The notes: generated by a model not told the origin, from the sequence alone. A stretch of 32,000 nt of DNA from Trichlorobacter lovleyi SZ (GCF_000020385.1 NC_010814.1:2190001-2222000); one strand, 5' to 3'. Shown: positions 2,013-21,227, counted from the stretch's first letter. Made by a program: numbers and translations.

Positions 2013-3134
2013 CTATTCCTCCCCGTCTTTTGTGTTCTCGTCAGCCGTATCTTTATCCTTGCGCAGGGCATTCATGGCACCATGGATAGCAAAGGCACCA
2101 CCCACACCGGCAGTAAAGGCAAGCCCGATCTTGTCGGCACTCTGCTCAATACCAAAGCCAGGCACGTTGGGCAGACGGCGATAGAGTGGCGAAGTATCCC
2201 AGAACTGGGGTTCGGAACAGCCGACACAGCCATGACCGGCAGCAACCGGCCAGCTGATTCTCTCGTTAAAACGCTGGGTGGGACAGTTATGGAAGGTTGC
2301 CGGACCCTTACAGCCCATCTTGTAGAGGCAGTGCCCCTTGCGGTGGGCATCATCCCCCCAATGCTCAACATACTGACCGGCATCAAAGTGGGGACGACGT
2401 TCACAGTTGTCATGAATCCGCTTGCCGTAGGCAAACAGGGGACGGCCATGGCTGTCAAGACTGGGAAGTTTACCAAAGGTAAGGAAGTGAACCACTACAG
2501 CGGTCAGGTTATCGGCATTGCAGGGGCAGCCGGGCAGGTTGATCACCGTAGCACCGGGCACCGCCTCTTTGACCCCAACTGCGCCGGTGGGATTGGGAGC
2601 AGCAGCGGGAATACCGCCGAAACTGGCACAGGTGCCCACAGCAATGGTGGCTGCTGCAGATCCACAGACCTGTTTGGCCCGGGCCAGATGGGACTTGCCG
2701 CCAACACAGCCATAGGCTCCTCCTTCCTTCATCGGGATGGAACCCTCAACCACGCAGAGGTATTTGCCCTGGAACTCTTTGATGGTCTTTTCGAGGTTGG
2801 CCTCAGCCTGATGACCGGCAGCAGCCATGATGGTTTCATGGTAATCAACCGAGAGGATATCCAGTACCAGCTCTCCCACGGTGGGGTTGGCTGAACGTAA
2901 CAGAGCCTCCGTGTCGCCGCAGCAATCCTGAAACTCCAGCCAGACCAGCGGAGGACGCTGCACCTTGTCCAGGGCTTGAGCCACCTTGGGTGCCATGGTG
3001 GCAGGTAACGCCATGGCAGCGGTGACAGTAGAACAGAATTTCAGGAAATCACGCCGCGAGACTCCCCGTTCTTCAAGCATCCTGGCAACCGAGAAACCTT
3101 CCTGTTTCTTTCCAGCACATTCATCTCTGTCCAT
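2013..3134 (-). CDS. hyaA: [NiFe] hydrogenase small subunit, Tat-exported, with C-terminal membrane anchor
   Basis: Twin-arginine signal SRRDFLKF, Fe-S cysteine clusters and a C-terminal hydrophobic helix. I chose the start at MDRDE (ATG 3134) because GAGGAGG precedes it. The track ORF extends to 3203. Confidence 0.92.
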   Translation of the reverse strand: MDRDECAGKKQEGFSVARMLEERGVSRRDFLKFCSTVTAAMALPATMAPKVAQALDKVQRPPLVWLEFQDCCGDTEALLRSANPTVGELVLDILSVDYHETIMAAAGHQAEANLEKTIKEFQGKYLCVVEGSIPMKEGGAYGCVGGKSHLARAKQVCGSAAATIAVGTCASFGGIPAAAPNPTGAVGVKEAVPGATVINLPGCPCNADNLTAVVVHFLTFGKLPSLDSHGRPLFAYGKRIHDNCERRPHFDAGQYVEHWGDDAHRKGHCLYKMGCKGPATFHNCPTQRFNERISWPVAAGHGCVGCSEPQFWDTSPLYRRLPNVPGFGIEQSADKIGLAFTAGVGGAFAIHGAMNALRKDKDTADENTKDGEE

Positions 3135-3377
3135 AGGCACCTCCTCTGGCGGTAGCTGCACAAAAAACCCCTGTTCTTCTATACCCCTCACTTGCCGCGT
3201 CAACGGTTAATACAAACGATGTTATTATAACGCTGAAATTGTTTTTAGCAAGCATCCAGGGATTATTTAGTCCAAACGCAGCAAACCACAACAAACGCGC
3301 CATAGCATTCAAATATACAAATATCTATTTTTCTGCATAAAATTGACCTTTACTAAAGGCCGTTGTATACAGAGCCC

Positions 3378-3710
3378 ATGGTTTTTCTGAGACAGCATAT
3401 TTTTCTTGCCGTGCTTGTTACTGCAGTACTGTTTTTCAGTATGTCAGCCAGCCATTGCACCTGGATACTTCAGGTAATGGATGACACCCCTTCATCATCC
3501 CTGCATTTGAATTACAACGAACTTGGTGAAGACAGCCAGGAAGACCGATACAGTCCGGCCTGTTTGCTCCTCCACCCGGATGTTCTGACTCCACACCCTG
3601 TTGCCTCCCATCCCGGGCAGTTGTCAATGCAACTGACACCAGACGACCAGTCCTTGCACCTGCCCCAGATCTACTTCGACATCTTTATCCCACCTCAAAT
3701 ACTCAGCTGA
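3378..3710 (+). CDS. hypothetical small protein with N-terminal hydrophobic segment (weak call)
   Basis: Open frame with ATG at 3378 and a hydrophobic N-terminus FLAVLVTAVLFF. No clear RBS and no recognisable domain. Confidence 0.25.
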   Translation: MVFLRQHIFLAVLVTAVLFFSMSASHCTWILQVMDDTPSSSLHLNYNELGEDSQEDRYSPACLLLHPDVLTPHPVASHPGQLSMQLTPDDQSLHLPQIYFDIFIPPQILS

Positions 3711-3801
3711 ATGCAGTACGCAGCATAGCCGCAGAAATGGTATTTCCCTGATTATTCCTCGCTGTTTCAGGCAGCAGGACACTACCGAAAGGAGTTATTC
3801 C

Positions 3802-4968
3802 ATGAGTATCCGCACCAGACTTGCAGCCAGTTTTGTCACACTCTTTGCTGTTGCCCTGCTGGCCGGTTGTGAAACCGGACCAGAGGTCAAAAGTGAAGCA
3901 CCAACACCGCAGACAGTGGCAACTGCCGCGCCTAAGGAGGGAGCAAAGAAGACAGGCCCTGTGCTGCCTAAAGGCGTCACTGTAATCTCTACGGATGAGC
4001 TTAAGGCTTTGATTGCAAAAGGTCCTGAAGCCGGAAACTACCTGCTTTTTGACAGCCGCCCCGCCTCACGTTTCCATGCTGCAACCATCCCGACCTCGAT
4101 AATGTTGCCAGACACGGAAATGGTAAAGCTGGACAAAGAAGGCAAGGCCCATCCCCTGCTTGGCCAGGACAAGAATAAACTTCACATCTTCTGGTGCGGA
4201 GGCCCTACCTGACCGTTCTCAATCAAGGCTGCCGGTCTGGCAGTCAAGTATGGCTACACCAACGTAAAGGTATTCTCCGGTGGCGACCCTGCTTGGGCAA
4301 AAGCAGAGCAACCTTTTATTTCATCACCCAAGCATGTCAAAGAAGCAAATATTCTGCTGCTTGACTTGCGTTCAGCTGACAAATTTGCTGCCGGTCATAT
4401 TCCTCGCGCTCTGAACTTGCCAGCAGCCAATCTGGACAAATACCAAGAAAACAACTGGCCCTCCTTTAAAGGTGCCGCAATTGTCTTCTACAGCGACAAT
4501 CAGGCCGATATTGATAAGGCTCTCGAGTTGATGCGCGATTACGGCATGTCCAAGGCGACCTACTTCCCCGGTGGCCTGGCAAACTGGCAAAAACTAGGAA
4601 ACCCGGTTGAGACAGGTCCCAAGCCTGCCCCAGCCAACCTTGTCTTTGTACGTGTATTGGGACCACAAGACATAACCATACCTGATTTCATTAAAGCACT
4701 GGACAACCCAAATGTTGTCATTCTGGATGTCCGCAACCCAACTGAAAGGGCAACCGGCCAGTTCAAAGGCTCCATACACATCCCGTCTGAGGAAATCGGA
4801 ACACGTTACAGCGAAATCCCCAAAGACAAGCTTGTAATTGTCCACTGTTCCACTGGCATTCGTGCCGGGATTGCCTATGAGACGCTGAAGGCCAAAGGCT
4901 TTACAAATCTTAAGGCGTTGAATGCAAACGTTAAATTTGAAAACGGAAAATACAAAATCACCGAATAA
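3802..4968 (+). CDS. Triple-rhodanese-domain lipoprotein read through one in-frame UGA (4210-4212), a putative selenocysteine at residue 137
   Basis: AAGGAG RBS and lipobox LLAGC. ORFs 3802-4212 and 4366-4968 share a frame and no other stop lies between them. The TGA splits a rhodanese domain (HIFWCGGPT-[TGA]-PFSIKAAGLAVKYGYTNVKVFSGGDPAW). Domain 2 lacks an active Cys (FYSDNQAD). Domain 3 has the classical HCSTGIRAG loop. Confidence 0.7.
4227..4245 (+). promoter_or_regulatory. SECIS-like hairpin: GGCUGCC / GGUCU loop / GGCAGUC
   Basis: 7-bp stem (one G-U pair) starting 14 nt after the UGA. The 5-nt GGUCU loop starts 21 nt after the UGA, a position and loop type like bacterial SelB-binding elements. 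Confidence 0.55.
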
Positions 4969-4994
4969 TTTCAGTTTCCGGGCTGCTTAATACA

Positions 4995-5026
4995 AAAGGG
5001 ACGGAGCAATCCGTCCCTTTTGTTTC
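4995..5026 (+). terminator. Rho-independent terminator after the rhodanese gene
   Basis: GGGACGG-agcaat-CCGTCCC followed by TTTTGTTT. Confidence 0.8.
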
Positions 5027-5272
5027 AACCTCACACGCAACAGTCCGCAATTCCCGTTAAAGCTATCCAACCAGCCGCTCCCCGACAACTGCAGAAAGAG
5101 CACAACATCACAAAAAACAGCATCAGCATCTAGTAGCATCATACCATCCCTGCAACAGCCACTCAGCTGCAGAGCACACTCCAGCTCCTCTGCATTATCA
5201 AAACAAGCACAATAATTACATACATTTGAACATCACCTTGGACCAGCACAGGCCAAAACACAGCACAAATTC

Positions 5273-5296
5273 ATGTTGCAAACACAAATGCAACAT
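5273..5296. repeat. Inverted repeat ATGTTGCA-N8-TGCAACAT
   Basis: Perfect 8-bp arms read directly from the sequence. Lies about 190 bp upstream of the candidate sigma-54 promoter. Confidence 0.6.
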
Positions 5297-5364
5297 CAGC
5301 CAGTCTGTGCAACACACAAATATTTATGTATTTCAAGCATGTTATCTCCACCACCAGACAACCA

Positions 5365-5382
5365 ATGTTGCACATGCAACAT
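5365..5382. repeat. Inverted repeat ATGTTGCA-N2-TGCAACAT
   Basis: Perfect 8-bp arms. Centre is about 115 bp upstream of the TGGCAC at 5484. Confidence 0.6.
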
Positions 5383-5483
5383 CGCGTATACAACTTCTAC
5401 CCTCCTAAAACACCAACCAATAATCATTATTTTTTAAATAATTGCGAATATTTGCATAGCAACCTCAACGCACACACGGGTCT

Positions 5484-5499
5484 TGGCACAATACTTGGA
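5484..5499 (+). promoter_or_regulatory. Candidate sigma-54 (-24/-12) promoter TGGCAC-aatac-TTGGA
   Basis: Good -24 element and correct spacing, but the -12 element reads GG instead of the consensus GC. Lies 54 nt upstream of the ATG at 5553. Confidence 0.35.
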
Positions 5500-5509
5500 A
5501 TACAACAAA

Positions 5510-5529
5510 TGCAACAGACGCTTGTTGCA
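5510..5529. repeat. Inverted repeat TGCAACA-N6-TGTTGCA in the leader of the 5553 operon
   Basis: 7-bp arms in the opposite arm order to the upstream copies. Lies between the candidate promoter and the RBS. Confidence 0.5.
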
Positions 5530-5552
5530 CAGAGAATGAAACGAGGCAGACC

Positions 5553-5870
5553 ATGACCACCGGCAAGATCGCCATCCCCTATTATGGAACCTTAAGCCAC
5601 CCCAACAGTGGATTTGAACGGGTTTTCTTTATTCTTGAACATGACGAACAGAATCAAGGCAAACAGCATCAGGTCAGCATGGGGATCTGGGATGCAACCC
5701 AAACTCCCCTGCTGCCAGCCTGGTTGCACCAAAACGGCATTAAACAAATCGTCTGCAGTTCTGCACCTGACCGGTCGTTGATGGAAACCATGTTGAAAGC
5801 CGGTATCAGGGTGTTTGGTGAAAGCAGTGAAAAGGCCCGTAAAATTCTTAAAAGTCTTTGCCTGATTTAA
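5553..5870 (+). CDS. NifX/NifB-C-terminal-like (dinitrogenase FeMo-cofactor-binding fold) small protein
   Basis: 105 aa. KIAIP start, central variable loop, then GIKQIVCS...LKAGIRV pattern typical of the family. Recognised by eye only. Confidence 0.45.
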   Translation: MTTGKIAIPYYGTLSHPNSGFERVFFILEHDEQNQGKQHQVSMGIWDATQTPLLPAWLHQNGIKQIVCSSAPDRSLMETMLKAGIRVFGESSEKARKILKSLCLI

Positions 5871-5921
5871 GGCTGGTACCAACATAAATCCTGTCTGTTG
5901 CTTGTGTGAAAGGAGACAGCC

Positions 5922-6074
5922 ATGAAAGCAAAAAGCAATTTTTCAACTCTGGTGGCAGAAACAACCGCAAAAGGAAGCTTGGCATTATTTGCAGGCATCG
6001 GTGTATTCCTAGCGGGATTCATTACATGGTCAGCAGCTGGTGCTGTCAGCGCAATTATTGATTTATTCAGCTGA
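5922..6074 (+). CDS. 50-aa single-TM micro-protein (MKAKSNFS...), absent from the ORF track
   Basis: AAAGGAGA RBS 6 nt upstream of the ATG. My translation is MKAKSNFSTLVAETTAKGSLALFAGIGVFLAGFITWSAAGAVSAIIDLFS. A paralogue follows immediately. Confidence 0.55.
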   Translation: MKAKSNFSTLVAETTAKGSLALFAGIGVFLAGFITWSAAGAVSAIIDLFS

Positions 6075-6107
6075 TTATTAAATACCACCCCCATAAGGAG
6101 GAAGCCC

Positions 6108-6254
6108 ATGAAGGCAAAACAGAATTTTTCAGATTTAGATGACCGCAAGTATATCGGCCGCGTACTGGCAGTTGCAGGTGTATTTTTCACCGGTGCCGCT
6201 ACCGCTGTCGCCTGGCCAGGCCTGAGCCATATTGCTCACAAACTGATTGGCTAG
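6108..6254 (+). CDS. 48-aa single-TM micro-protein (MKAKQNFS...), absent from the ORF track
   Basis: AAGGAGG RBS. My translation is MKAKQNFSDLDDRKYIGRVLAVAGVFFTGAATAVAWPGLSHIAHKLIG. A strong terminator follows. Confidence 0.55.
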   Translation: MKAKQNFSDLDDRKYIGRVLAVAGVFFTGAATAVAWPGLSHIAHKLIG

Positions 6255-6265
6255 CTATTTATACC

Positions 6266-6298
6266 GGGCAGGAGTTGCTCCTGCCCTTTTTTGTGTTT
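6266..6298 (+). terminator. Rho-independent terminator
   Basis: GGGCAGGAG-ttg-CTCCTGCCC followed by TTTTTTGTGTTTT. Confidence 0.85.
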
Positions 6299-6331
6299 TG
6301 ATGCCAACTACCCCATGCAGGTGAACCAATT

Positions 6332-7060
6332 TTGCAACATGTCGTAATCCATACAACTCTGGAGTGCCCGACCTGCGCAACAACACGCCTGTACCGTTTG
6401 GCAGACGGACGCTTCAAATGTTCACTTTGCAGAAAGGTATTCAGCGCTGGCGACAATCGTCATAGCAGACTTTCACCGTTGATACGTGAAGAGCTGGCAA
6501 AGGCATTCTGGAAGATGGATGGAACTGCAGATACAGCAGAAGCACTCAAACTGAATATCAAAACAGTTCAAAAATATTTCAGTTTGCTGCGGGATAATCT
6601 GGCAAAACATGCTCGCTTGAATCTGATTCAACAACTGGGGAGCGACACACTGCCAACAAACTGGTTCGAATCGTTTCCCCGACGCAGCAGCTGCGGGCAC
6701 CATGCTCAACCGCTTGCGGCAGTAGCCAAAGCAGGTGACAACCTCAACTTCCTGCTGGCAAGCCCGGATGCAGCACAACCGGTATTTCCCGAATCAGCGC
6801 TGCTGGGCTGGCTGTATGCACAGGATGACGAGAGCAAGCAACGCATCAATCTGGACCGGATACATTGCCAATCACGGGACAGCGACAGCATTACCCTTGC
6901 AATACCATTCTGGAGATTTGTCAAACAAGGACTGATCCGTTACCAGGGTGGCTTCAGGCATCATTTTTATCAGTATTTGCGAGAAATGGAGTTCCGTTAC
7001 AACGACCGTCAGAAACAGCGTGGACCAGATATCTGCCTGCATTTTCTAGCTTCCGAGTAA
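6332..7060 (+). CDS. IS1595/ISXO2-like transposase-derived protein (zinc ribbon plus truncated C-terminal transposase domain)
   Basis: N-terminal CPTC...CSLC zinc ribbon. C-terminal FWRFVKQGL..YQG..HHFYQYLREMEFRYNDR resembles the conserved IS1595 C-terminus. At 242 aa it is short, and I saw no flanking terminal inverted repeats. The start (TTG 6332) is uncertain. Confidence 0.55.
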   Translation: MQHVVIHTTLECPTCATTRLYRLADGRFKCSLCRKVFSAGDNRHSRLSPLIREELAKAFWKMDGTADTAEALKLNIKTVQKYFSLLRDNLAKHARLNLIQQLGSDTLPTNWFESFPRRSSCGHHAQPLAAVAKAGDNLNFLLASPDAAQPVFPESALLGWLYAQDDESKQRINLDRIHCQSRDSDSITLAIPFWRFVKQGLIRYQGGFRHHFYQYLREMEFRYNDRQKQRGPDICLHFLASE

Positions 7061-7087
7061 CACATTTTATTTTCAGGAGAGAGCACC

Positions 7088-8935
7088 ATGCGCCGAACAC
7101 CAGTAGCACTCGTTGTACTCGTTTTTTCAATGTTGTTCATGCTGCCAGGCATACTCCACGCTACAGTGGACAAAATGGCCTACGACCCGGAAAACTGCCT
7201 TGGTTGCCACAGCAGCAAAATCAGCCTTGACAACTTTGCCGCCTCCCCCCATGGCAAAAACGGCTGTACCAGTTGTCACCTCCAGAGTGCCGACCTGAAG
7301 AAGCACATGACCGGCAATACCAAACTGGACAAGGTCAACTGTTCCCGTTGCCATGGCAATGAGACCAAGGAGTTTGAAAAGAGCGTTCATGCCAAGAGCG
7401 GACTGACCTGCGTATCCTGTCACTCGGACATCCATGCCTTCAGCTCCAAAAAAAGCGACAAGAAAGCTGCAACACTGGCCTGTATCAAGTGCCACGACAA
7501 GCAGAAGGTACACCTGAACTCAGTTCATGGTGTATCTCTGATGAAAGGCAATCCCGATGCACCCGGCTGTGCGGATTGTCATGGGCTGCACGGCATTAAG
7601 AAAGTACAACCGGCCAGCACCATTGAAGGTCGAATGTTCCATGTTGATGCCTGCATCAAGTGCCACAGTGACGAAAAAATGATGCACCGCAATCATGTCA
7701 ACGGCCATGCTGTTGAAACCTACCTGGATAGCTACCACGGCAAAGGCTATCGCCTGGGCATGCTGCAGAAGGCTGCCGGCTGTTCTGACTGCCACACTGC
7801 ACATAATGTACTTAAAAAAGACAACCCGGCCTCCTCAGTACATCCCAATAATGCCGCTAAGTCCTGCGCTCAGTGCCATACCAAGGCTACTGCACTGTTT
7901 GCCAAATTCTACTCACACGGTAGTCACCACGACCGTGAAAACTACCCCCTGATGTACTGGACCTTCAAGGCCATGGTAGGCCTGCTGGTAGGTACCTTCG
8001 CTGTATTCTGGGTTCACACTCTGCTCTGGATGTTCCGAGGTTTTGTTGAAAACCGTGAAAAACAGAAGGCCTTGATTGAAGGCCATGTACACCATGTTGA
8101 TGAACCGCACAAACTGTACTACCGTTTCAAAAAACGCCATATCTTCCTGCACTTTACGGTAATTGTCAGCTTCCTGGGTCTCTCCCTGACCGGACTGCCG
8201 CTTAAGTTCAGTGACCAGGCCTGGGCCCAGACCATGATGTCCTTCTTTGGCGGCGTTGAATATGCCGGCCTGATTCACCGTGGCTGCGCTGTACTGACCT
8301 TCTATTATTTCATGGGCGCACTCTGGATGAGTATTGACTTCCTGCTGCTGCGTAAGGATGTAAAAGGCAATGTCCTGCAGCGGATGTTCGGACCAGACTC
8401 CCTGATGCCGAACTTCCGTGACATCAAGGATGTGATCGGCATGGTCAAATGGTTCCTGTTTAAAGGGCCCAAACCGACCTTTGAACGCTGGACTTACTGG
8501 GAAAAATTCGACTTCATCGCCGTCTTCTGGGGTATGTTTGCCATCGGCGGTTCAGGTCTGATGCTCTGGTTCCCCGAATTCTTCGGTCAGTTCCTGCCCG
8601 GCTGGGCATTTAACCTGGCAACTATCGTCCACTCTGACGAGGCACTGCTGGCAACCGGCTTCATCTTCACGGTTCACTTCTTCAACACCCATGGCCGTCC
8701 TGAGAAGTTCCCGATGGACTTCGTTATCTTCAACGGTCAGATGAACAAGGAAGAGTTCATTGAAGAGCGTGGTGACCAGTGGAAGCGTTACGAAGAGCAG
8801 GGAATACTGGAGTACTTTGAAGTTGAGAAGCCCAGTGGTGTAGTCTACGACTTTATCTTCAAGACCTTCGGCTTTATTGCCGTATTCACCGGCCTTGCCC
8901 TTGTGGTGGCCATGTTGTGGGCCTTCCTGGCCTGA
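7088..8935 (+). CDS. cbcL: CbcL-like inner-membrane cytochrome: nine-haem c-type periplasmic domain fused to a multi-TM b-type cytochrome (HydC/FdnI-like) domain
   Basis: Signal peptide and nine CXXCH motifs (CLGCH, CTSCH, CSRCH, CVSCH, CIKCH, CADCH, CIKCH, CSDCH, CAQCH). These are followed by about 6 hydrophobic helices with conserved His (RHIFLHF, HSDEA, HFFNTH). GGAGAG RBS. Confidence 0.8.
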   Translation: MRRTPVALVVLVFSMLFMLPGILHATVDKMAYDPENCLGCHSSKISLDNFAASPHGKNGCTSCHLQSADLKKHMTGNTKLDKVNCSRCHGNETKEFEKSVHAKSGLTCVSCHSDIHAFSSKKSDKKAATLACIKCHDKQKVHLNSVHGVSLMKGNPDAPGCADCHGLHGIKKVQPASTIEGRMFHVDACIKCHSDEKMMHRNHVNGHAVETYLDSYHGKGYRLGMLQKAAGCSDCHTAHNVLKKDNPASSVHPNNAAKSCAQCHTKATALFAKFYSHGSHHDRENYPLMYWTFKAMVGLLVGTFAVFWVHTLLWMFRGFVENREKQKALIEGHVHHVDEPHKLYYRFKKRHIFLHFTVIVSFLGLSLTGLPLKFSDQAWAQTMMSFFGGVEYAGLIHRGCAVLTFYYFMGALWMSIDFLLLRKDVKGNVLQRMFGPDSLMPNFRDIKDVIGMVKWFLFKGPKPTFERWTYWEKFDFIAVFWGMFAIGGSGLMLWFPEFFGQFLPGWAFNLATIVHSDEALLATGFIFTVHFFNTHGRPEKFPMDFVIFNGQMNKEEFIEERGDQWKRYEEQGILEYFEVEKPSGVVYDFIFKTFGFIAVFTGLALVVAMLWAFLA

Positions 8936-8944
8936 TAACCAAGA

Positions 8945-8974
8945 TCAGGGGGCGGCAATGCTGCTGCCCCCTGA
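8945..8974 (+). other. GC-rich stem-loop between the cytochrome gene and the next ORF
   Basis: TCAGGGGGC...GCCCCCTGA 9-bp stem with no T-tract. Possible partial terminator or mRNA stabiliser. Confidence 0.3.
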
Positions 8975-8998
8975 CTCTTTAAGAGGAGTTTAAATCGT

Positions 8999-9253
8999 AT
9001 GAATAAGGATCTGTCTCTGATACTTTCCATACTGGCCTTTATCCTGTATATCGTTGGTGGACTTGGAATTTTCAGCGGTCTCTTTATGGTATTGGTACTG
9101 AAAACAAAAGAGCTGTTCGGTCTGGGTACCGCAGAAACTCTGGGCTATCTGTTCCTCTGTGTCGGTGCCTGCCTCTCTGTGGCCGGCGTACTAACCCTTC
9201 GTATTATCCGTAACCGTACCAATCAGAAACTGTACCAGGCAGCTACCTGCTGA
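8999..9253 (+). CDS. small two-TM membrane protein, unknown function
   Basis: AGAGGAG RBS 9 nt upstream. Two hydrophobic helices. Confidence 0.6.
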   Translation: MNKDLSLILSILAFILYIVGGLGIFSGLFMVLVLKTKELFGLGTAETLGYLFLCVGACLSVAGVLTLRIIRNRTNQKLYQAATC

Positions 9254-9289
9254 ATGTAAGATTTGTTCCCGGAGGGAACCGTCACTACC

Positions 9290-10963
9290 ATGGCTGACAA
9301 CGACAATTGCGAACAACTGAAATATTTCAGTCATATTATGGACTCCGTGGCAGATGGTGTCTTCACCGTAGACCGTGATATGCATGTCATTGCCTTTAAC
9401 CGCGCTGCAGAGCTGATGACCGGCATTAAGAGAGCAGATGCGGTTGGGCGCCCCTGTCACGAGATTTTCCGCACCTCGGTCTGTGACAATGGTTGTCCGG
9501 TACGGGAAGCAATGAAGAAGGGCAAACCGGTTACCAACCGTGAAGTAACCATTAAAAATGCAGAAGATAAGTTGATTCCGGTTTCAGTCAGCGCCTCCAT
9601 TCTCTATGACGATGAAGGCAACCCGATTGGCGGGGTTGAGACTCTGCGCAGCATGAAGCGTATCTACGCGATTATGGACAGCGTTGCCGATGGCCTCTTT
9701 ACGGTTGACGAAGGGATGCACATCACTCACTTTAACAAGGCTGCCGAAGAAATTACCGGGGTTTCCGCTCAGGAAGCGATCGGCAGGCCCTGCTATGAAA
9801 TCTTTAAATCCGAAGCCTGCACCGGTGCCTGCCCGATGGTTGAAGCCATTGCCACCGGCCAATCCATCCAACGGGAAGTGGAAATCAGTGATCGCAAAGG
9901 GCGTAAGAAGCTGATCTCAGTCAGCGCATCTACCCTCTATGATGCAGCCGGCAATGTCATGGGCGGAGTGGAAACCGTCCGCGACCTGACACCGATTACT
10001 GCAATTAAAGAAGAAATTCGTGAAAAATACTCGTTCCGCAGCCTGGTGAGCCGTAACCCTGCCATGCGGCGCCTGTTTGACGTCATGGAAGATATCGCTG
10101 CCAGCAATGCAACCGTCTTCCTGAACGGTGAAAGCGGCACCGGGAAAGAGCTATTTGCCAGGGCTATCCACGATTTAAGCCCCCGCCGCGAAGGTCCGAT
10201 GGTAATCGTCAACTGTGGCGCCTTGCCGGAAACCCTGCTTGAGTCAGAGATCTTCGGTGTCCGCAAAGGAGCCTTTACCGGTGCAACAGAAAACCGCCCC
10301 GGGCGGCTTGAACTGTGTAACGGCGGCACATTCTTCCTGGATGAAATCGGTGACCTGCCATTGCCGCTGCAGGTAAAACTGCTGCGTGTCCTGGAAAACC
10401 ATGAGTTCCAGCCACTTGGCGCCCGTTCTCCCATCAAGGCCGATGTCCGCTTCATCACCGCAACCCACCGTAATCTTGAAGAGATGGTGGCGGAAGGCAC
10501 CTTCCGTCAGGATCTCTACTTCAGAATCAATATTGTTACCCTCAACATCCCTCCCCTGCGTGACCGTCGCGAGGATATCCCCCTGCTTGTTGATATGGCT
10601 CTGCAACGTTTCAACCTCACCTACAATAAAAAAGTCCGCTCTGTTTCACCTGAAGTCTTGAAGCTGTTGCTTACCCACTCCTTTCCCGGCAACGTCAGAG
10701 AACTCTTGAATCTGATCGAACAGTCAGTCATACTCTGCCGCGGAACAGAGATCACTCTGGATCACCTGCCAACTAACTTTCTGGGGCAATCCCACGAGCA
10801 GGCGCAGAACACGCGTCGTTCCGGCAAGATTCCGACCGCCGCAGATCTGAATGCCCTGTTAAGCCGCTATAGCGGCAATCGGGCCGAAGTTGCACGGGAG
10901 CTGAATATCGACCGTACAACCCTTTGGCGTTGGATGAAAAGGCTTGGTGTGAAGGAGTTTTAA
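9290..10963 (+). CDS. Sigma-54-dependent transcriptional activator: PAS-PAS, AAA+ and Fis-type HTH
   Basis: Walker A GESGTGKE, GAFTGA loop and C-terminal HTH (NRAEVARELNIDRTTLWRWMKR). Two PAS domains each carry C-x9-C-x3-CP. Start taken at ATG 9290 (MADNDN) after GGAGGGA. Confidence 0.9.
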   Translation: MADNDNCEQLKYFSHIMDSVADGVFTVDRDMHVIAFNRAAELMTGIKRADAVGRPCHEIFRTSVCDNGCPVREAMKKGKPVTNREVTIKNAEDKLIPVSVSASILYDDEGNPIGGVETLRSMKRIYAIMDSVADGLFTVDEGMHITHFNKAAEEITGVSAQEAIGRPCYEIFKSEACTGACPMVEAIATGQSIQREVEISDRKGRKKLISVSASTLYDAAGNVMGGVETVRDLTPITAIKEEIREKYSFRSLVSRNPAMRRLFDVMEDIAASNATVFLNGESGTGKELFARAIHDLSPRREGPMVIVNCGALPETLLESEIFGVRKGAFTGATENRPGRLELCNGGTFFLDEIGDLPLPLQVKLLRVLENHEFQPLGARSPIKADVRFITATHRNLEEMVAEGTFRQDLYFRINIVTLNIPPLRDRREDIPLLVDMALQRFNLTYNKKVRSVSPEVLKLLLTHSFPGNVRELLNLIEQSVILCRGTEITLDHLPTNFLGQSHEQAQNTRRSGKIPTAADLNALLSRYSGNRAEVARELNIDRTTLWRWMKRLGVKEF

Positions 10964-16749: not shown

Positions 16750-16956
16750 ATGCCCCAAGCCATAACCGCCGTCTATGAAAACGGAGTTTTTATTCCTCAA
16801 ACTCCTGTCAATTTACCCCAACATACAGCCGTCATCATCTCTCTTCCTGCTGTCTCTCATTCAAAGTCCGGCAAACGTTTCTCAGCTTTGTTGCAAGAAC
16901 CGCTCATAGCTGAGCATATTGTAATACCTCCACGAGACGAGCTTCATGAACGTTAA
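16750..16956 (+). CDS. DUF104/AF2212-like antitoxin (VapB-type partner)
   Basis: N-terminus AITAVYENGVFIP...LP...V is characteristic of the family. GAGGAGG RBS. Overlaps the PIN gene by 11 nt. Confidence 0.7.
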   Translation: MPQAITAVYENGVFIPQTPVNLPQHTAVIISLPAVSHSKSGKRFSALLQEPLIAEHIVIPPRDELHER

Positions 16957-17356
16957 GGCATTCATTGACACCAACATTTTTGTGTACGCAGCAATCCAGG
17001 CAGCAGATTCACTTGCAAAACGGGAGTCTGCCGTTGCTCTTTTAAACAGCCCCACCCGGTATGTAGTCAGCACACAGGTACTTAACGAATTTGCCGCCGT
17101 TCTGTTAAAGAAAAAATTTAGCGACAAACTTATCAGAACCAGAGTTGAATCCATTGCAAACGAATGCAGCATCGCTGTTGTTGATATGAAGACCATCCGG
17201 CTGGGTTGGGATCTGCGCCAGCGTTACAACCTCTCCTTATGGGATAGCCTGATAGCTGCTTCAGCCCTGATCGCAAAGTGTACTATTCTCTACACTGAAG
17301 ACATGCAAAACGGACTGCTTATTGATAACAGTCTCCACGTTGTGAACCCGTTTTAG
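16946..17356 (+). CDS. vapC: PIN-domain toxin
   Basis: FIDTNIFVYA N-terminal acidic motif, about 136 aa, with later conserved D/E positions (WDSLI, TED). Confidence 0.85.
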   Translation: MNVKAFIDTNIFVYAAIQAADSLAKRESAVALLNSPTRYVVSTQVLNEFAAVLLKKKFSDKLIRTRVESIANECSIAVVDMKTIRLGWDLRQRYNLSLWDSLIAASALIAKCTILYTEDMQNGLLIDNSLHVVNPF

Positions 17357-17431: not shown

Positions 17432-17467
17432 AAAAAAAACCGGGAAGACCATAACAGCCTCCCCGGT
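17432..17467 (-). terminator. Candidate rho-independent terminator closing the DGR operon
   Basis: Minus strand reads ACCGGG...CCCGGT (with extra inner pairs) followed by T8. Confidence 0.45.
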
Positions 17468-17490
17468 GGGTACTTCAACCAATCACCAAA

Positions 17491-17507
17491 CCCGGCTTTT
17501 GGCCGGG
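17491..17507 (-). other. GC hairpin CCCGGC-5 nt-GCCGGG, 4 nt downstream of VR1/IMH
   Basis: 6-bp all-G/C stem with a 5-nt loop. It is flanked on both sides by the octamer CCAATCAC (17479-17486 and 17508-17515). Confidence 0.5.
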
Positions 17508-17511
17508 CCAA

Positions 17512-18012
17512 TCACTGACCGGCACGCACTAACCGCACATAGACGGAATAGCCACGGTTGCTGTAGTCAACGAGCCCATGGTCGAAACTGACGTACCAGG
17601 CGCCGTAACTATTGCCTGCATAGGGAGAAGCAGACCAGGTGTAGCCTGCCGGTGTGGCTGGAAAGGCGGTGGTATCAATGGCCGGGTTGCTGCGGGTTCT
17701 ATCCACAATGCTGCCCAGTTCTTTAATGTTGGGCAGCTTCCAGCCGGTCTGGGTCTTGGCATAGGCCAGGGCTGCCTGATGGGTATAGGTGGCGGCAGTA
17801 CCTGTGCAGGTGGTTCCGCTCCAGCTCATACCAGCCACACAGCGCTGCCAGGTAAGCCCGGTTGTGCTGTCAATCACCTGGCTGCCATCGGTAGAGTAAC
17901 TATAACGATCTGCCCATGCCGATGCGCTCATCAGCAACAGCCCCAGCAAGAACAGGGCAGCCAACAGTGCTGGTTTCGTTGTCATCATCTGTCTGTTTGT
18001 ACGTGCTTTCAT
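17512..18012 (-). CDS. DGR target protein 1: secreted DUF1566 (C-type-lectin-fold) protein with C-terminal variable region
   Basis: Signal peptide, then GLTWQR...WKLPNIKEL...YWSASP...YVRLVRAGQ. The last ~40 codons are VR1. AAAGGAGA RBS. Confidence 0.9.
   Translation of the reverse strand: MKARTNRQMMTTKPALLAALFLLGLLLMSASAWADRYSYSTDGSQVIDSTTGLTWQRCVAGMSWSGTTCTGTAATYTHQAALAYAKTQTGWKLPNIKELGSIVDRTRSNPAIDTTAFPATPAGYTWSASPYAGNSYGAWYVSFDHGLVDYSNRGYSVYVRLVRAGQ
17516..17637 (-). repeat. DGR variable repeat VR1 (122 bp)
   Basis: Aligns without gaps to TR 19272-19393. There are 19 mismatches. 18 are at TR adenines (coding strand) and 1 is a synonymous GGC/GGG change. Confidence 0.92.
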
Positions 18013-18026
18013 CTTCTGTTTCTCCT

Positions 18027-19271
18027 TTAGGTGTAAACTATCTTCATTGCGTTACGGCGGCGTGCAAGCTTGTGACGCGCCGGTTGTTTTACAACAAGGC
18101 CAGCATCAGCATGTAACTGAAAAAAATTGTGCAGCCAGTTAAATCGCTTAAACAGTGCATGGCGAAGACGCACACTATTGGCATGGCAGAAATGCCCCCA
18201 ATAGCTGCCCAGCAGCGCTTGCAATTTGCTGAAAGACTCTGTGCTGACCATCTGGGCAGCTTGGCCATACTGTTGCCACCAACCTGAAAGCTTCTTGCAG
18301 CAGTGCTTTACTACCCTGGGGCGCACAAGGCGATGGCCGCAGTAGACCCGATACCCCAGAAAATCCACCCCATGATGTAACGGCGCCAGCACCACGGCAT
18401 CTTTCAGGCGCAGCTGCAGTCTGGTTTCAAGAAAAGCAGCTATCTCTGCCTGCCATGTACGCAACTGCTCTTTACTGTCTGCCAACAGCACAAAATCATC
18501 CACATAGCGCAGATAATTCCGCACCTTTAGTTGATGCTTGATGAATTGATCCAGCTCATTCAGATAGACATTGGCAAAAAACTGGCTGGTAAGATTACCC
18601 ACCGGCAAACCGCACTGGGGTCGGGCGTTACGAAGCCGTTTGTGGGGCGGCACAGAAGATGGCGCAGCCCCAGGCCGTTCAATTTCTCGGCTTTTACGGG
18701 CAAGTAACTTATGACACAGGCTGCGTAACGCCAGTCTCTGGCTATCTGCCAGCTTTCCTTTCTGCAAGGCCAGATCAAGACGGCGGCACAGCAGGGCATA
18801 TAAGGTAGGGCGATGGATGCTGTTAAAATAGTTATGGATATCCAGTTGCAGATACCAGCCCTGTCCGTTTCTGCGGCGGATCATCTGCTGCAGACGATCA
18901 ACCGCTGCGTGGCTACCCTTAGCAGTGCGGTTAGCATAGCTATCGTATACAAATACCGGTTCATACAGGCGCTGAAGCCGATCCACCAGCAGGTGGTGGA
19001 CAATCCGGTCGGCAAACGCCGGCGCATGTATCTCACGGGTCTTGGGGTGAGTTACGGTAAAACAAACAGTGGGGGCTGGCTGCCAGCAGCCAGCACGCAG
19101 GCTGCTGTACAACTGGTGCAGGTTATCCAGCCAACGTGCCTCAAACAAAAGTTGATTGGCGCTGGGCTTTTTGCCGCGCCTGGCCTGTAGCCAGGCAGCA
19201 TGGCAGGCAGAAAACCGGACAGACACCGGCAGATTGGGAGAATAGACTGCTTTCACCGTGCTTAGCTCCAT
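18027..19271 (-). CDS. DGR reverse transcriptase
   Basis: RT motifs include YVDD (RYVDDFVLL) and the DGR-typical LPVGNLTSQ ([ILV]GxxxSQ). No maturase or endonuclease domain. Flanked by TR and a VR-bearing gene. Confidence 0.93.
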   Translation of the reverse strand: MELSTVKAVYSPNLPVSVRFSACHAAWLQARRGKKPSANQLLFEARWLDNLHQLYSSLRAGCWQPAPTVCFTVTHPKTREIHAPAFADRIVHHLLVDRLQRLYEPVFVYDSYANRTAKGSHAAVDRLQQMIRRRNGQGWYLQLDIHNYFNSIHRPTLYALLCRRLDLALQKGKLADSQRLALRSLCHKLLARKSREIERPGAAPSSVPPHKRLRNARPQCGLPVGNLTSQFFANVYLNELDQFIKHQLKVRNYLRYVDDFVLLADSKEQLRTWQAEIAAFLETRLQLRLKDAVVLAPLHHGVDFLGYRVYCGHRLVRPRVVKHCCKKLSGWWQQYGQAAQMVSTESFSKLQALLGSYWGHFCHANSVRLRHALFKRFNWLHNFFQLHADAGLVVKQPARHKLARRRNAMKIVYT

Positions 19272-19393
19272 TGACCGGCACGCACTAACCGCACATAGTT
19301 GGTATTGTTACGGTTGTTGTTGTTAACGTTGCCATTGTTGAAATTGACGTTCCAGGCGTTGTTACTATTGCCTGCATAGGGAGAAGCAGACCA
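19272..19393 (-). repeat. DGR template repeat (TR), 122 nt, 15 AAY codons in the virtual frame
   Basis: The virtual translation is ...AGNSNNAWNVNFNNGNVNNNNRNNTNYVRLVRAGQ. It is the invariant adenine-rich copy of VR1 and VR2. It lies between the avd-like gene and the RT. Confidence 0.92.
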
Positions 19394-19452
19394 CAACGCC
19401 AACCCGCCCACTTGCGACGCAGCAGCACAGCTTAAAAGGTAGCGCTGCCTTA

Positions 19453-19998
19453 TCATGGTGTAGCCTCGTTTGAGGCGGAACGGGTACTCAGTGAAGCGGG
19501 ACGATCCTGCGCCCTGCCAGTGGCAGGCGCAGACTGTTGCCCGGTGAAGGCCGCTATTGCACGGCCATCGCACGATTCTGGTGATACATCCGATCTGGCG
19601 CTGCACGGTTTATTTTGTGCAGAGCGCCACCAGCCACCACACTGTTTGCCTACTGCTGCGGCAAGATGCGCCGCAGTTTCAAAATGAGAGAACGGTACCC
19701 CGGCTGTCGGCTGTTTCCGTTTAGCCGGGCTTGCCTGATTGAAAACCCCCAGCTCCATGCCAAGCTGCAGACTGAGCTTATAGTCATCCACCAGCCAGAT
19801 CAGGCTGTTCAGGTGCTCTTTCTGCTGGGCCTTGTCAAACACCAGCCTATGCACGGTACGCATGATTGCCATGGCCTGTTGCCTCAGATCCGTTCCCAAG
19901 GTGTACTTATGGTAACGGCTGAAGCAACGCACCATCTCTTCAGTATGCACCAGCAGCCTGCGGCAATCACGGTATATGGGTGGTAATGATGTATGCAT
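19453..19998 (-). CDS. avd: Avd-like accessory variability determinant (four-helix-bundle family) with an unusually long C-terminal tail
   Basis: Sits between target and TR. Helical, basic sequence (YRDCRRLLVHTEEMV...YHKYTLGTDLRQQAM...LIWLVDDYK...VGKQCGGWWRS) resembles Bordetella bAvd in layout. ATG 19998 is preferred over TTG 20019. Confidence 0.7.
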   Translation of the reverse strand: MHTSLPPIYRDCRRLLVHTEEMVRCFSRYHKYTLGTDLRQQAMAIMRTVHRLVFDKAQQKEHLNSLIWLVDDYKLSLQLGMELGVFNQASPAKRKQPTAGVPFSHFETAAHLAAAVGKQCGGWWRSAQNKPCSARSDVSPESCDGRAIAAFTGQQSAPATGRAQDRPASLSTRSASNEATP

Positions 19999-20019
19999 GG
20001 CAGATGGCCAAGTATCCAA

Positions 20020-20973
20020 TCACTGACCGGCACGCACTAACCGCACATAGACGGCATTGCCACGGCCGCCGCCGTTAACGCCGCCAAAGCTGAAATGGAC
20101 GACCCAGGCGTAGTCACTATAGCCTGCATAGGGAGAAGCAGACCAGTAGGCGCTGCCCACGGTGTTTGGAAACCAGGTGCTATTAATGGTTGGGGCGGGG
20201 TAAGCAATGCTGTAGTCCACAATCATCTGCAGTTCATCAGCCGTGGGCAGGCGCCAGTCTGTATACCCGCAGAGGCTGGTTGCATTCACTGCTGTTACAT
20301 AGGCAGAGGCATCACCGGCTCTGCTGTCACCGTAGTTGGTATAGGTGTTGTCTTTATCCCGCAGGCCGCCATCATCGGTCTTGCCTTCCCAGATCAGGCC
20401 AGTTTTGTTGTCCTGTACGCAGGAAGTAAGCGGGTAAGCCCCCACAGCGCTGTAGCTCATACCGCTTGTACCGGGGGTAATCATACCGTCCTGCTGGTCA
20501 TTCAAGGCAATGGCACCGGCACTGCTGCAGCTTATCAGCGTATCGCTTCCGGCCTGATAACATTGCTGATCAGTTATGCCGGTGTCAGGCAGACTGGCGA
20601 CAAATGCTGCTGCCACAGTTATTGTCTGGCTGGCATCGATCACCGTACCACCACTGGCAGTCAGCACGGTTATGGTCTTTGTCCCGGCGCTACCACCAGG
20701 TGTGCAGCTTTGCGTTATGGTAGTGGCACTATTTACTGTTGGGCTGTCGCAGGTGCCGTCTTGCAAGGTAAAGACCGCGGTTAACGGCAGGTTGGCACCG
20801 GTTACAGTAATACTTACGGCCGTGCCGATGGTTGCGGTGCTGGCAGGGGTTACGGCACTGACCGTGGAGGTTGTGGTGGTCGTGGTTGCACTGCTACTGC
20901 CGCCGCATGCGGCCAGCAGCAGGGTTGCTGCCACGCATAGGCCATGTACAAAATACTGTTGTTTTTTCTTCAT
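20020..20973 (-). CDS. DGR target protein 2: lipoprotein with Thr/Ser linker, Ig-like segment and C-terminal DUF1566 (CLec-fold) domain ending in VR2
   Basis: Lipobox LLLAAC. GLIWEGK...WRLPTADEL...YWSASP...YVRLVRAGQ. GGAGG RBS. Confidence 0.9.
   Translation of the reverse strand: MKKKQQYFVHGLCVAATLLLAACGGSSSATTTTTTSTVSAVTPASTATIGTAVSITVTGANLPLTAVFTLQDGTCDSPTVNSATTITQSCTPGGSAGTKTITVLTASGGTVIDASQTITVAAAFVASLPDTGITDQQCYQAGSDTLISCSSAGAIALNDQQDGMITPGTSGMSYSAVGAYPLTSCVQDNKTGLIWEGKTDDGGLRDKDNTYTNYGDSRAGDASAYVTAVNATSLCGYTDWRLPTADELQMIVDYSIAYPAPTINSTWFPNTVGSAYWSASPYAGYSDYAWVVHFSFGGVNGGGRGNAVYVRLVRAGQ
20024..20145 (-). repeat. DGR variable repeat VR2 (122 bp)
   Basis: Aligns without gaps to the TR. 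There are 22 mismatches, all at TR adenines. Confidence 0.92.
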
Positions 20974-21003: not shown

Positions 21004-21035
21004 AAAAAAACCGCCCCCCAATAGCCGGGAAGCGG
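21004..21035 (-). terminator. Intrinsic-terminator-like hairpin in the leader, about 30 nt upstream of the DGR target-2 start
   Basis: Minus strand reads CCGCUUCCC-ggcuauu-GGGGGGCGG (9 bp, 2 G-U pairs) followed by U7. Confidence 0.5.
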
Positions 21036-21078
21036 TTGTGTGCACTACGTTATGTAAAAAACAGGGGATTACGCCATT

Positions 21079-21143
21079 TGTGCTGTGCTGTGCTGTGCTG
21101 TGCTGTGCTGTGCTGTGCTGTGCTGTGCTGTGCTGTGCTGTGC
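21079..21143. repeat. Pentanucleotide microsatellite (TGCTG)12 plus partial units
   Basis: Twelve perfect tandem TGCTG units at 21081-21140, with partial units on both flanks. Intergenic, 105-170 bp upstream of DGR target 2. Confidence 0.97.
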
Positions 21144-21187: not shown

Positions 21188-21227
21188 TTTGTATACACTA
21201 ACAAAAGTCGTGTCAAGAGATTTGACA
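21188..21227 (-). promoter_or_regulatory. Candidate sigma-70 promoter (TTGACA-17 nt-TACAAA, minus strand) with palindrome TGTCAA-N5-TTGACA over the -35
   Basis: -35 is the complement of 21211-21216 and -10 is the complement of 21188-21193. Direct repeats CTTACAAA x2 lie just upstream (21234-21252). Confidence 0.3.

Follow-up and report, generated by a model that had tools for sequence, protein, structure and literature searches.

The 32,000-nucleotide stretch of Trichlorobacter lovleyi SZ analysed here (NC_010814.1:2190001-2222000, called the window, with positions counted from its first letter) carries on its minus strand a diversity-generating retroelement (DGR), with a template repeat (TR), a reverse transcriptase (RT) gene, an avd-like accessory gene and two target genes that each end in a variable repeat (VR). 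An earlier note on this DNA had named the open reading frames (ORFs) and their coordinates, and all of them are present on that strand:

17512-20973, minus strand: the DGR cassette, in the order target1-avd-TR-RT-target2
20020..20973, minus strand: target gene 1 (ORF, PF07603), a 317-aa lipoprotein with lipobox LLAAC and a C-terminal Lcl_C/DUF1566 domain
20024..20145, minus strand: VR-up, the variable repeat of target 1
19453..19998, minus strand: Avd-like accessory gene, 181 aa, with a predicted four-helix bundle at residues 7-129 and a disordered tail
19272..19393, minus strand: TR
18027..19256, minus strand: DGR RT, 409 aa from GTG 19256 (414 aa if from ATG 19271)
17512..18012, minus strand: target gene 2 (ORF, PF07603; ACD95788), a 166-aa Sec-secreted Lcl_C/DUF1566 protein
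17516..17637, minus strand: VR-down, the actively diversified variable repeat of target 2, with three alleles in independent samples

The cassette proteins are 100% identical to ACD95788-ACD95792 of T. lovleyi SZ (3,917,761-bp replicon), target 1 being ACD95792/WP_012470131.

Exact alignment of positions 17516-17637, 19272-19393 and 20024-20145 gives three gap-free copies of 122 nt, as the earlier note had proposed. Between TR and VR-up there are 22 mismatches, each at a TR adenine (22/22); between TR and VR-down there are 19, and 18 of these are at TR adenines. The remaining difference, C63>G (GGC>GGG), is synonymous. The hypergeometric P of an all-adenine pattern is ~1e-14 for the 22 mismatches of VR-up and ~2e-12 for the 19 of VR-down, the second value being approximate since one VR-down mismatch is not at an adenine. 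The middle, non-coding copy is indeed rich in Asn codons: read in the target frame the TR holds 15 AAY codons, and 35 of its 37 adenines occupy codon positions 1 or 2. The repeat is slightly longer than the proposed 122 bp, in that homology to the VRs extends by 3 nt (TCA-A-TG in the TR, TCA-G-TG in the VR), with one further A>G difference.

We compared VR alleles in assembled contigs, which were found via their identical RT. An independent metagenome contig of the same locus (ERZ27315029, our L001) differs from SZ at 24 of 7,966 ungapped bases, and not one of the 24 differences falls outside the 122 nt of VR-down; 21 occupy positions where the TR has an adenine. No difference was seen in TR, VR-up, avd, RT, uvrD or any other part of the comparison. 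Because every difference falls inside VR-down on an identical TR and RT background, this is direct evidence of retrohoming. Three VR-down alleles were found:

Allele A: SZ, SRR9436582, SRR21915715 and GCA_047291845.1
Allele B: ERZ27315029 and SRR5324000
Allele C: SRR25435824

Allele C has zero non-adenine changes, and the TR is the same in 10/10 independent assemblies in which it is present. The data show the anatomy of the locus, its adenine-specific TR/VR pattern and the rewriting of VR-down, two times or more, in natural populations that are otherwise identical. Could such differences arise without reverse transcription, by point mutation and diversifying selection or by gene conversion between paralogous targets? 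The targets are paralogues that share the repeat, and a few differences are not at adenines (positions 24, 42 and 63). However, neither process accounts for the confinement to VR-down, for the placement where the TR has A (by chance, P of ~1e-12 to 1e-14) or for allele C, and conversion from VR-up would bring VR-up bases, which was not observed; we consider this explanation extremely improbable. A fossil DGR, whose repeats record past activity after retrohoming had ended, would fit the identity of VR-up in six assemblies, and loss does occur in the lineage, a sister strain having lost the avd 3' part, TR and RT while keeping frozen VRs (see below). Against it stand the three VR-down alleles on ~8-kb backgrounds that are otherwise 100% identical, with RT, Avd and TR intact and identical, and the intact state of every cassette ORF, and we regard a fossil as very unlikely. 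The claim of a complete DGR with one template and two flanking targets holds, with every component tested present and one VR seen rewritten between populations, and the locus is almost certainly a chromosomal DGR that is currently active, with the layout target1-avd-TR-RT-target2.

VR-up behaves differently. It is the same in SZ and five other assemblies (six in all), and the exact target-1 protein occurs in ERZ27315029, SRR25435824 and others; VR-up is fixed in these samples while VR-down changed at least two times. This asymmetry is suggestive and a weak lead: for equal rates at the two sites, two inferred events give P of about 0.25. A 96%-identical strain (ERZ724086, our L099) covers a longer timescale. 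Its VR-up has 26 differences from that of SZ and its other VR 24, nearly all at TR adenines, and because of the 26 adenine-directed differences VR-up is a genuine target that is rewritten over that longer timescale. Both VRs of this strain share T69>C, which therefore comes from its own former TR. The strain lacks the avd 3' half, TR and RT and has ~200 nt of unrelated sequence instead, while both targets and both VRs are kept:

L099 8963-9447, opposite window positions ~19748-18030: deletion/replacement of the RT core

It is a natural RT-less derivative, that is, a natural knock-out.

Further contigs gave side observations on these samples. Two of them, L009 and L010 (SRR13429078 and ERR7764176), end exactly 30 nt into VR-down; the breaks fit a k=31 graph if VR-down keeps A at position 31, unlike alleles A-C, and could reflect a fourth allele or heterogeneity within the sample. 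Logan contig breaks at VR edges were dropped as a sign of heterogeneity, since k=31 repeats explain them. A scan of Joint Genome Institute (JGI) metagenomes with the 31-nt VR end returned 18 contigs, all DGRs of other organisms and none from T. lovleyi, and added no VR alleles. L001 is 96.7% identical to SZ on its carB/greA side (L001 1-2816; window 23933-21114) and, apart from VR-down, 100% identical on its DGR/uvrD side (2787-10752; window 21108-13143). The switch coincides with the (GCACA)n pentanucleotide tract upstream of target 1 and may be due to recombination mosaicism or to a chimeric assembly.

The RT matches the RVT_1 domain (Pfam) and carries the signature named in the earlier note, with VGNLTSQ at residue 224 and YVDD at 256. 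Its nearest solved relative in the PDB is 8ub7_A, the BPP-1 DGR RT (E=6.4e-40), entered in the fold library as the RT of the DGR ribonucleoprotein, and other RTs are weaker, with LtrA at 1e-15 and retron and group II RTs at ~1e-12 to 1e-13. The proposed ORF from 19271 to 18027 (414 aa) is present, but GTG 19256 is more likely the start than ATG 19271, because a GGAG lies 9 nt upstream of the GTG and the resulting length agrees with the 409-aa RefSeq protein WP_012470128. ATG 19271 overlaps the end of the TR. Many RT homologues (our relatives L016-L028) have been called as proteins of 470-600 aa. In one of them read by hand, L018 from Marinobacter sp., the TR frame runs into the RT, with GAG in the TR where the VR has CAG-TGA; gene callers may fuse the N-rich ORF of the TR to the RT, and the long calls are probably an annotation artefact. 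Four close relatives (L109, L110, L112 and L114) have a two-tier hairpin (CGGGC…GCCCG), the inner stem of which covaries, ~25-70 nt past the TR end, within the poorly conserved first ~20 RT codons. T. lovleyi is without it, and its RT N-terminus is shorter.

Several points weigh against reading this locus as an active chromosomal DGR. Every VR-down allele but one has 1-2 non-adenine differences from the TR. VR-up is unchanged among the close samples and lacks a convincing downstream hairpin, and its present-day activity is unproven. The Avd-like sequence by itself scores below the family cut-offs (PF22296, E=5.5e-3 and 17.6 bits, with a Pfam cut-off of 40 bits; NF033474, E=2e-4 and 21.4 bits, with an NCBIfam cut-off of 80), and a profile of its homologues gave no Avd match among PDB sequences, so that fold comparison was needed instead. 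The AlphaFold2 (AF2) model of target 2, built from a 32-sequence alignment, is unreliable (predicted local distance difference test score, pLDDT, 48) and leaves a C-type-lectin fold unconfirmed. Finally, the role that we propose for a structured RNA 5' of the TR (see below) is deduced solely from position and covariation.

The Avd assignment is made from the predicted fold and from family-level evidence. PF22296 is matched by 39/40 homologues of the protein. The AF2 model (pLDDT 80 overall, >90 in the core) has four helices spanning residues 7-129, and the last ~50 residues are predicted to be disordered. Its best Foldseek matches are 2gsc, of the intervening-sequence (IVS) family, 4dwl, the BPP-1 Avd, and 8ube_D/8ub7_D, the Avd chains of a DGR ribonucleoprotein (RNP), with a template-modelling (TM) score of about 0.8 normalised to the target. 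The ORF from 19998 to 19453 is best described as encoding a protein with an Avd-type bundle limited to residues 7-129.

Both targets match PF07603 strongly (target 1, E=1.6e-33 at residues 185-314; target 2, E=2e-30), which bears out the DUF1566 part of the earlier assignment and not yet its C-type-lectin part; the sole PDB profile match is 8q4e (E=1e-3). The lipobox of target 1 and the Sec signal of target 2 were read directly from the sequence. VR-up and VR-down form the last ~40 codons of target 1 and target 2, respectively, and both proteins end in YVRLVRAGQ, as had been pointed out. DUF1566-type VRs are a recognised class of DGR targets, treated as CLec2 and typified by the Legionella lipoprotein LdtA (PMC5758913). 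The statement that annotation offers only hypothetical proteins no longer applies in full, in that the current RefSeq product names include three functional ones (Lcl C-terminal domain protein, four helix bundle protein and RNA-directed DNA polymerase).

The sequences that follow the repeats set the TR apart from the VRs and carry elements like the initiation of mutagenic homing (IMH) site:

20016..20023, minus strand: VR-up flank GTGATTGG, IMH-like and absent from the TR
17490..17515, minus strand: post-VR-down elements, namely GTGATTGG and then a 7-bp GC-rich hairpin, GCCCGGC-CAAAA-GCCGGGU

Past the end of homology both VRs continue with GTGATTGG and the TR with GGAGCT, a distinction that is conserved in relatives. 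In the 18 JGI contigs of other organisms the 31-nt VR end plus GTGATTGG is identical, and their TRs read …GGUGAGUG followed by GAGCG where the VRs read …GGUCAGUG followed by AUUGG; this is a distinction of the IMH/IMH* type. The VR-down hairpin (7 bp, 5-nt loop) begins 7 nt past the repeat, and a separate canonical terminator lies 40 nt beyond; VR-up is followed by no significant hairpin. In the RT-less strain the stem is retained and the loop altered. Phage VRs have 7-10-bp GC-rich stems with GRNA tetraloops 4-34 bp downstream, which raise the efficiency of retrohoming (Guo et al., PMC3240598). We rejected a post-VR hairpin as a general cause of the asymmetry between VR-down and VR-up, since a perfect hairpin is missing after most VRs of the RT relatives; it is at most a local explanation. 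The VR-down hairpin is bracketed by a direct repeat of GTGATTGG, in the arrangement …CAGTGATTGG-hairpin-TTTGGTGATTGG… (17490-17515 and 17480-17489), and relatives have either GTGATTGG-TT-TTTGG or GTGATTGG-hairpin-TTTGG. Because of the flanking direct repeat and the relatives with or without it, the hairpin looks like an inserted module.

The TR is enclosed by further conserved elements at the RNA level:

19389..19496, minus strand: structured RNA domain of ~108 nt directly 5' of the TR, with the invariant ACUGAGU and helices P1, P2 and P3; it holds the Avd stop codon
19490..19497, minus strand: 5' strand of an enclosing duplex (GCUUCACU)
19265..19272, minus strand: 3' strand of this duplex (AAUGGAGC), at the TR 3' terminus, TR-specific and IMH*-like

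An unexpectedly conserved motif occurs in the disordered Avd tail, which is encoded by sequence that overlaps the RNA domain. Across relatives of several phyla it is the nucleotide sequence of the ~110 nt preceding the TR that is conserved, even where indels shift the reading frame, and RNAalifold applied to 19 sequences predicts a long-range helix (P1), a hairpin (P2) and an extended helix (P3). Pairing holds in 96.2% of cells, compared with 84% in shuffles and ~40% with the partners slid; 12 pairs show compensatory change, and 0/500 shuffles equalled the observed alignment on all five measures. A covariance model built from this alignment (R1) gave 34 matches on both strands of 886 kb, whose 3' ends fall at the TR start of each locus, save two secondary matches in loci with insertions. 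These matches include loci outside the seed, from Thiodictyon, Nitrospirae, Thermodesulfobacteriota and Methylococcales, and the window scores 92.5 bits at 19389-19496. In the 34-sequence alignment, itself fitted to the model, 22/25 pairs covary, and a single-sequence minimum-free-energy fold of the T. lovleyi RNA gives the same helices. The lineage with this domain comprises Trichlorobacter, Xanthomonadales, Methylococcales, Nitrospirota and Thermodesulfobacteriota.

When the whole RNA is folded, the GCUUCA just ahead of the invariant ACUGAGU pairs with the UGGAGC just past the TR. In T. lovleyi the partner strand of the TR 3' end is located ~110 nt upstream of this repeat. On 25 anchored sequences the core six pairs of this duplex are unbroken except for a C·A in T. 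lovleyi and L015, and at one position the pairs CG, AU, UA and GC all occur. Covariation scores 0.40, compared with 0.12 in shuffles (0/500); the helix being so short, the two stricter measures do not reach significance. An RNAduplex scan for primer-like pairing was uninformative. Neither the domain nor the duplex is described in Rfam or in the literature searched, an incomplete library, and Rfam gave nothing relevant in the cassette at its gathering threshold or at E<=1.

What could these elements do? In BPP-1 most of the essential RNA lies downstream of the TR, where a spacer provides the primer adenosine and base-pairs both with the TR 3' end and with the last ~11 nt of avd (bioRxiv 10.1101/2023.10.23.563531); the survey of other DGRs in that study used just 40 nt upstream of the TR. 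The T. lovleyi element does not have this architecture (a structured 3' spacer of ~140 nt between TR and RT, primer adenosine, Avd-binding stem-loops), and its structured RNA and the strand pairing with the TR 3' end are upstream of the TR, not downstream. The distance from the TR end is 9-15 nt to the RT start codon and 39 nt to the conserved RT residues; in this lineage the TR runs up to the RT start, which leaves hardly any space for a 3' spacer. The domain and the duplex presumably take over from the BPP-1 spacer, or add to it, in serving as scaffold, stop signal and possibly primer. We tentatively suggest, at somewhat less than even confidence, that the template-positioning RNA elements of this lineage have shifted to the upstream side of the TR, with cis-priming and termination from an upstream leader. 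If so, the pairing of the upstream strand (…N-ACU, then the invariant GAGU) with the TR terminus (AGU-N'…) would have the template:primer geometry of BPP-1, with the partner on the other side of the TR.

Alternatively, the structure may act outside the template RNP, as a cis-regulatory leader that sequesters the GGAG or couples Avd and RT expression, or the conservation may reflect a constraint on the Avd tail as protein. In T. lovleyi the GGAG of the duplex 3' strand probably doubles as the Shine-Dalgarno sequence for the RT, the Avd stop codon falls within the domain, and the downstream location of the BPP-1 RNA would fit a regulatory role here as well. Yet the Xanthomonadales have UCAG(G) as the 3' strand, which is no Shine-Dalgarno sequence, and keep the pairing, with all four Watson-Crick types at one position; moreover, the partner is the TR's own 3' terminus, as in the duplex of TR and spacer (Sp) in BPP-1. 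For the same reason a TR 3' flank that is merely the RT Shine-Dalgarno sequence and GTG start was judged insufficient. The protein constraint is excluded by conservation that outlasts frame-shifting indels and by the covariation of the pairs, and the 'ASLSxR…EATP' of the Avd tail was rejected as a protein motif, since base pairing explains its nucleotide-level conservation. Taken together, we consider a function outside the reverse-transcription template RNP rather unlikely. If the positioning role proposed above is true, RNP formation in T. lovleyi would also occlude the RT ribosome-binding site.

For the enzymology of the T. lovleyi DGR we reason from homology to Bordetella phage BPP-1. An RNA that reaches from the avd 3' end across the TR into the RT 5' end would be bound by the RT-Avd complex, and the TR would be reverse-transcribed with misincorporation opposite adenines. 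The cDNA would then take the place of the homologous VR (122 nt) at a target's 3' end, and ~15-20 codons would be re-randomised each time in a DUF1566 binding domain that is secreted or lipid-anchored. The TR itself would never be overwritten, presumably owing to the difference between its 3' flank (GGAGC...) and that of the VRs, GTGATTGG.

To place the layout, we searched 80 RT relatives from species-representative genomes with our own detector of adenine-biased TR/VR repeats. Such repeat pairs occur in 62/80, and 55 could be classified as a TR plus VR arrangement. Among the 44 with enough flank, 18 are bracketed, with one VR upstream and one downstream of the RT, followed by two VRs upstream (13), a single one upstream (9), three upstream (3) and downstream only (1); at least two targets were detected in 35/44. 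The earlier note had called the bracketed layout less common. Two-target DGRs make up about 13% of all DGRs (Wu et al., PMC5758913). In this RT lineage, however, the bracketed layout is the commonest and no oddity.

Compared with BPP-1 (mtd-avd-TR-brt), the T. lovleyi element shares the order target-avd-TR-RT, the adenine-specific transfer from TR to VR, the VR at the target 3' end, an RT homologous to bRT, an Avd-type four-helix bundle, the IMH versus IMH* distinction and a GC-rich hairpin after a VR. It is chromosomal, whereas BPP-1 is phage-borne, has a second target downstream of the RT, and its targets are DUF1566/Lcl_C proteins, not Mtd; its hairpin has a 5-nt loop (CAAAA) instead of a GRNA tetraloop and is missing after VR-up, and its Avd carries a ~50-residue tail unlike BPP-1 Avd. 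The DGR of Legionella pneumophila (LdtA; category 'd'/CLec2 of Wu et al.) is, by its description, similar in being bacterial, chromosomal or borne on an integrative and conjugative element (ICE), and in having a DUF1566-class surface lipoprotein target (PMC5758913) like target 1. It has an additional MSL accessory gene according to Wu et al., and none was seen in the T. lovleyi cassette, which is also set apart by its two targets.

The T. lovleyi SZ DGR is not a new find and belongs to a well-studied class. It was catalogued in 2012 in DiGReF, whose Table 2 lists RT GI 189425132 of Geobacter lovleyi SZ with 2 VRs (PMC3521204) and a target-to-target identity of 52.1% (PMC3521204). The same table has other two-VR DGRs without essential difference, those of Sideroxydans lithotrophicus ES-1 and Thiorhodospira sibirica, the latter (L044) being an RT relative with a bracketed layout as in T. 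lovleyi. The catalogue holds no activity evidence and no RNA structure. What our analysis adds is the turnover of VR-down in nature, the loss of the RT core in a sister strain, the RNA leader and the variable repeat tract upstream of target 1.

This last feature is part of the leader of target 1, which contains:

21188-21216, minus strand: promoter-like TTGACA-17-TACAAA, upstream of the tract
21079-21143, minus strand: (GCACA)13 tract, 106-170 nt upstream of the target-1 ATG
21009-21037, minus strand: terminator-like hairpin with a T-run, between the tract and the target-1 ribosome-binding site

The (GCACA)n sequence is a perfect pentanucleotide repeat, and the window holds no other tandem repeat. 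Between identical flanks the number of units is 13 in SZ, 6 in ERZ27315029, 7 in SRR25435821 and 9 in ERZ724086, and it looks like a contingency tract of the phase-variation type in the leader of a DGR target; a literature search found no paper tying simple-sequence repeats to DGR targets. With a promoter-like site upstream of the tract and a terminator-like hairpin downstream of it, target 1 may be expressed by read-through of the leader terminator. An ATG lies directly next to the tract, and the terminator-like hairpin is open in one frame. A leader-peptide or attenuator model for the tract nevertheless finds no support, as there is no convincing ribosome-binding site and the four repeat numbers give just two short frames. 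In Rfam the leader has only a sub-threshold ctRNA match.

The neighbours of the cassette are housekeeping or toxin-antitoxin genes (uvrD/rep, a vapBC-like pair, DUF1858, greA and carB; Pfam), and its base composition is like that of its surroundings. The T. lovleyi DGR is a resident chromosomal element and not a prophage. Two features lie at its downstream edge:

17439..17467, minus strand: intrinsic terminator closing the cassette
16750-17356, opposite strand: vapBC-like toxin-antitoxin pair (AF2212-like antitoxin and PIN toxin), directly downstream of the cassette and also kept in the RT-less strain

In summary, the T. lovleyi DGR is a tractable case in a cultured, sequenced bacterium that respires organohalides and metals. 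With one target turning over in nature, the other fixed and a natural knock-out strain at hand, both the choice of target and the ecological role of DUF1566 surface proteins become testable. If the RNA domain and its duplex are functional, the scaffold seen by cryo-electron microscopy in the phage element would not be the sole solution, and this lineage of DGRs would have a searchable RNA signature. The (GCACA)n tract may add expression switching to the sequence variation that the DGR provides.

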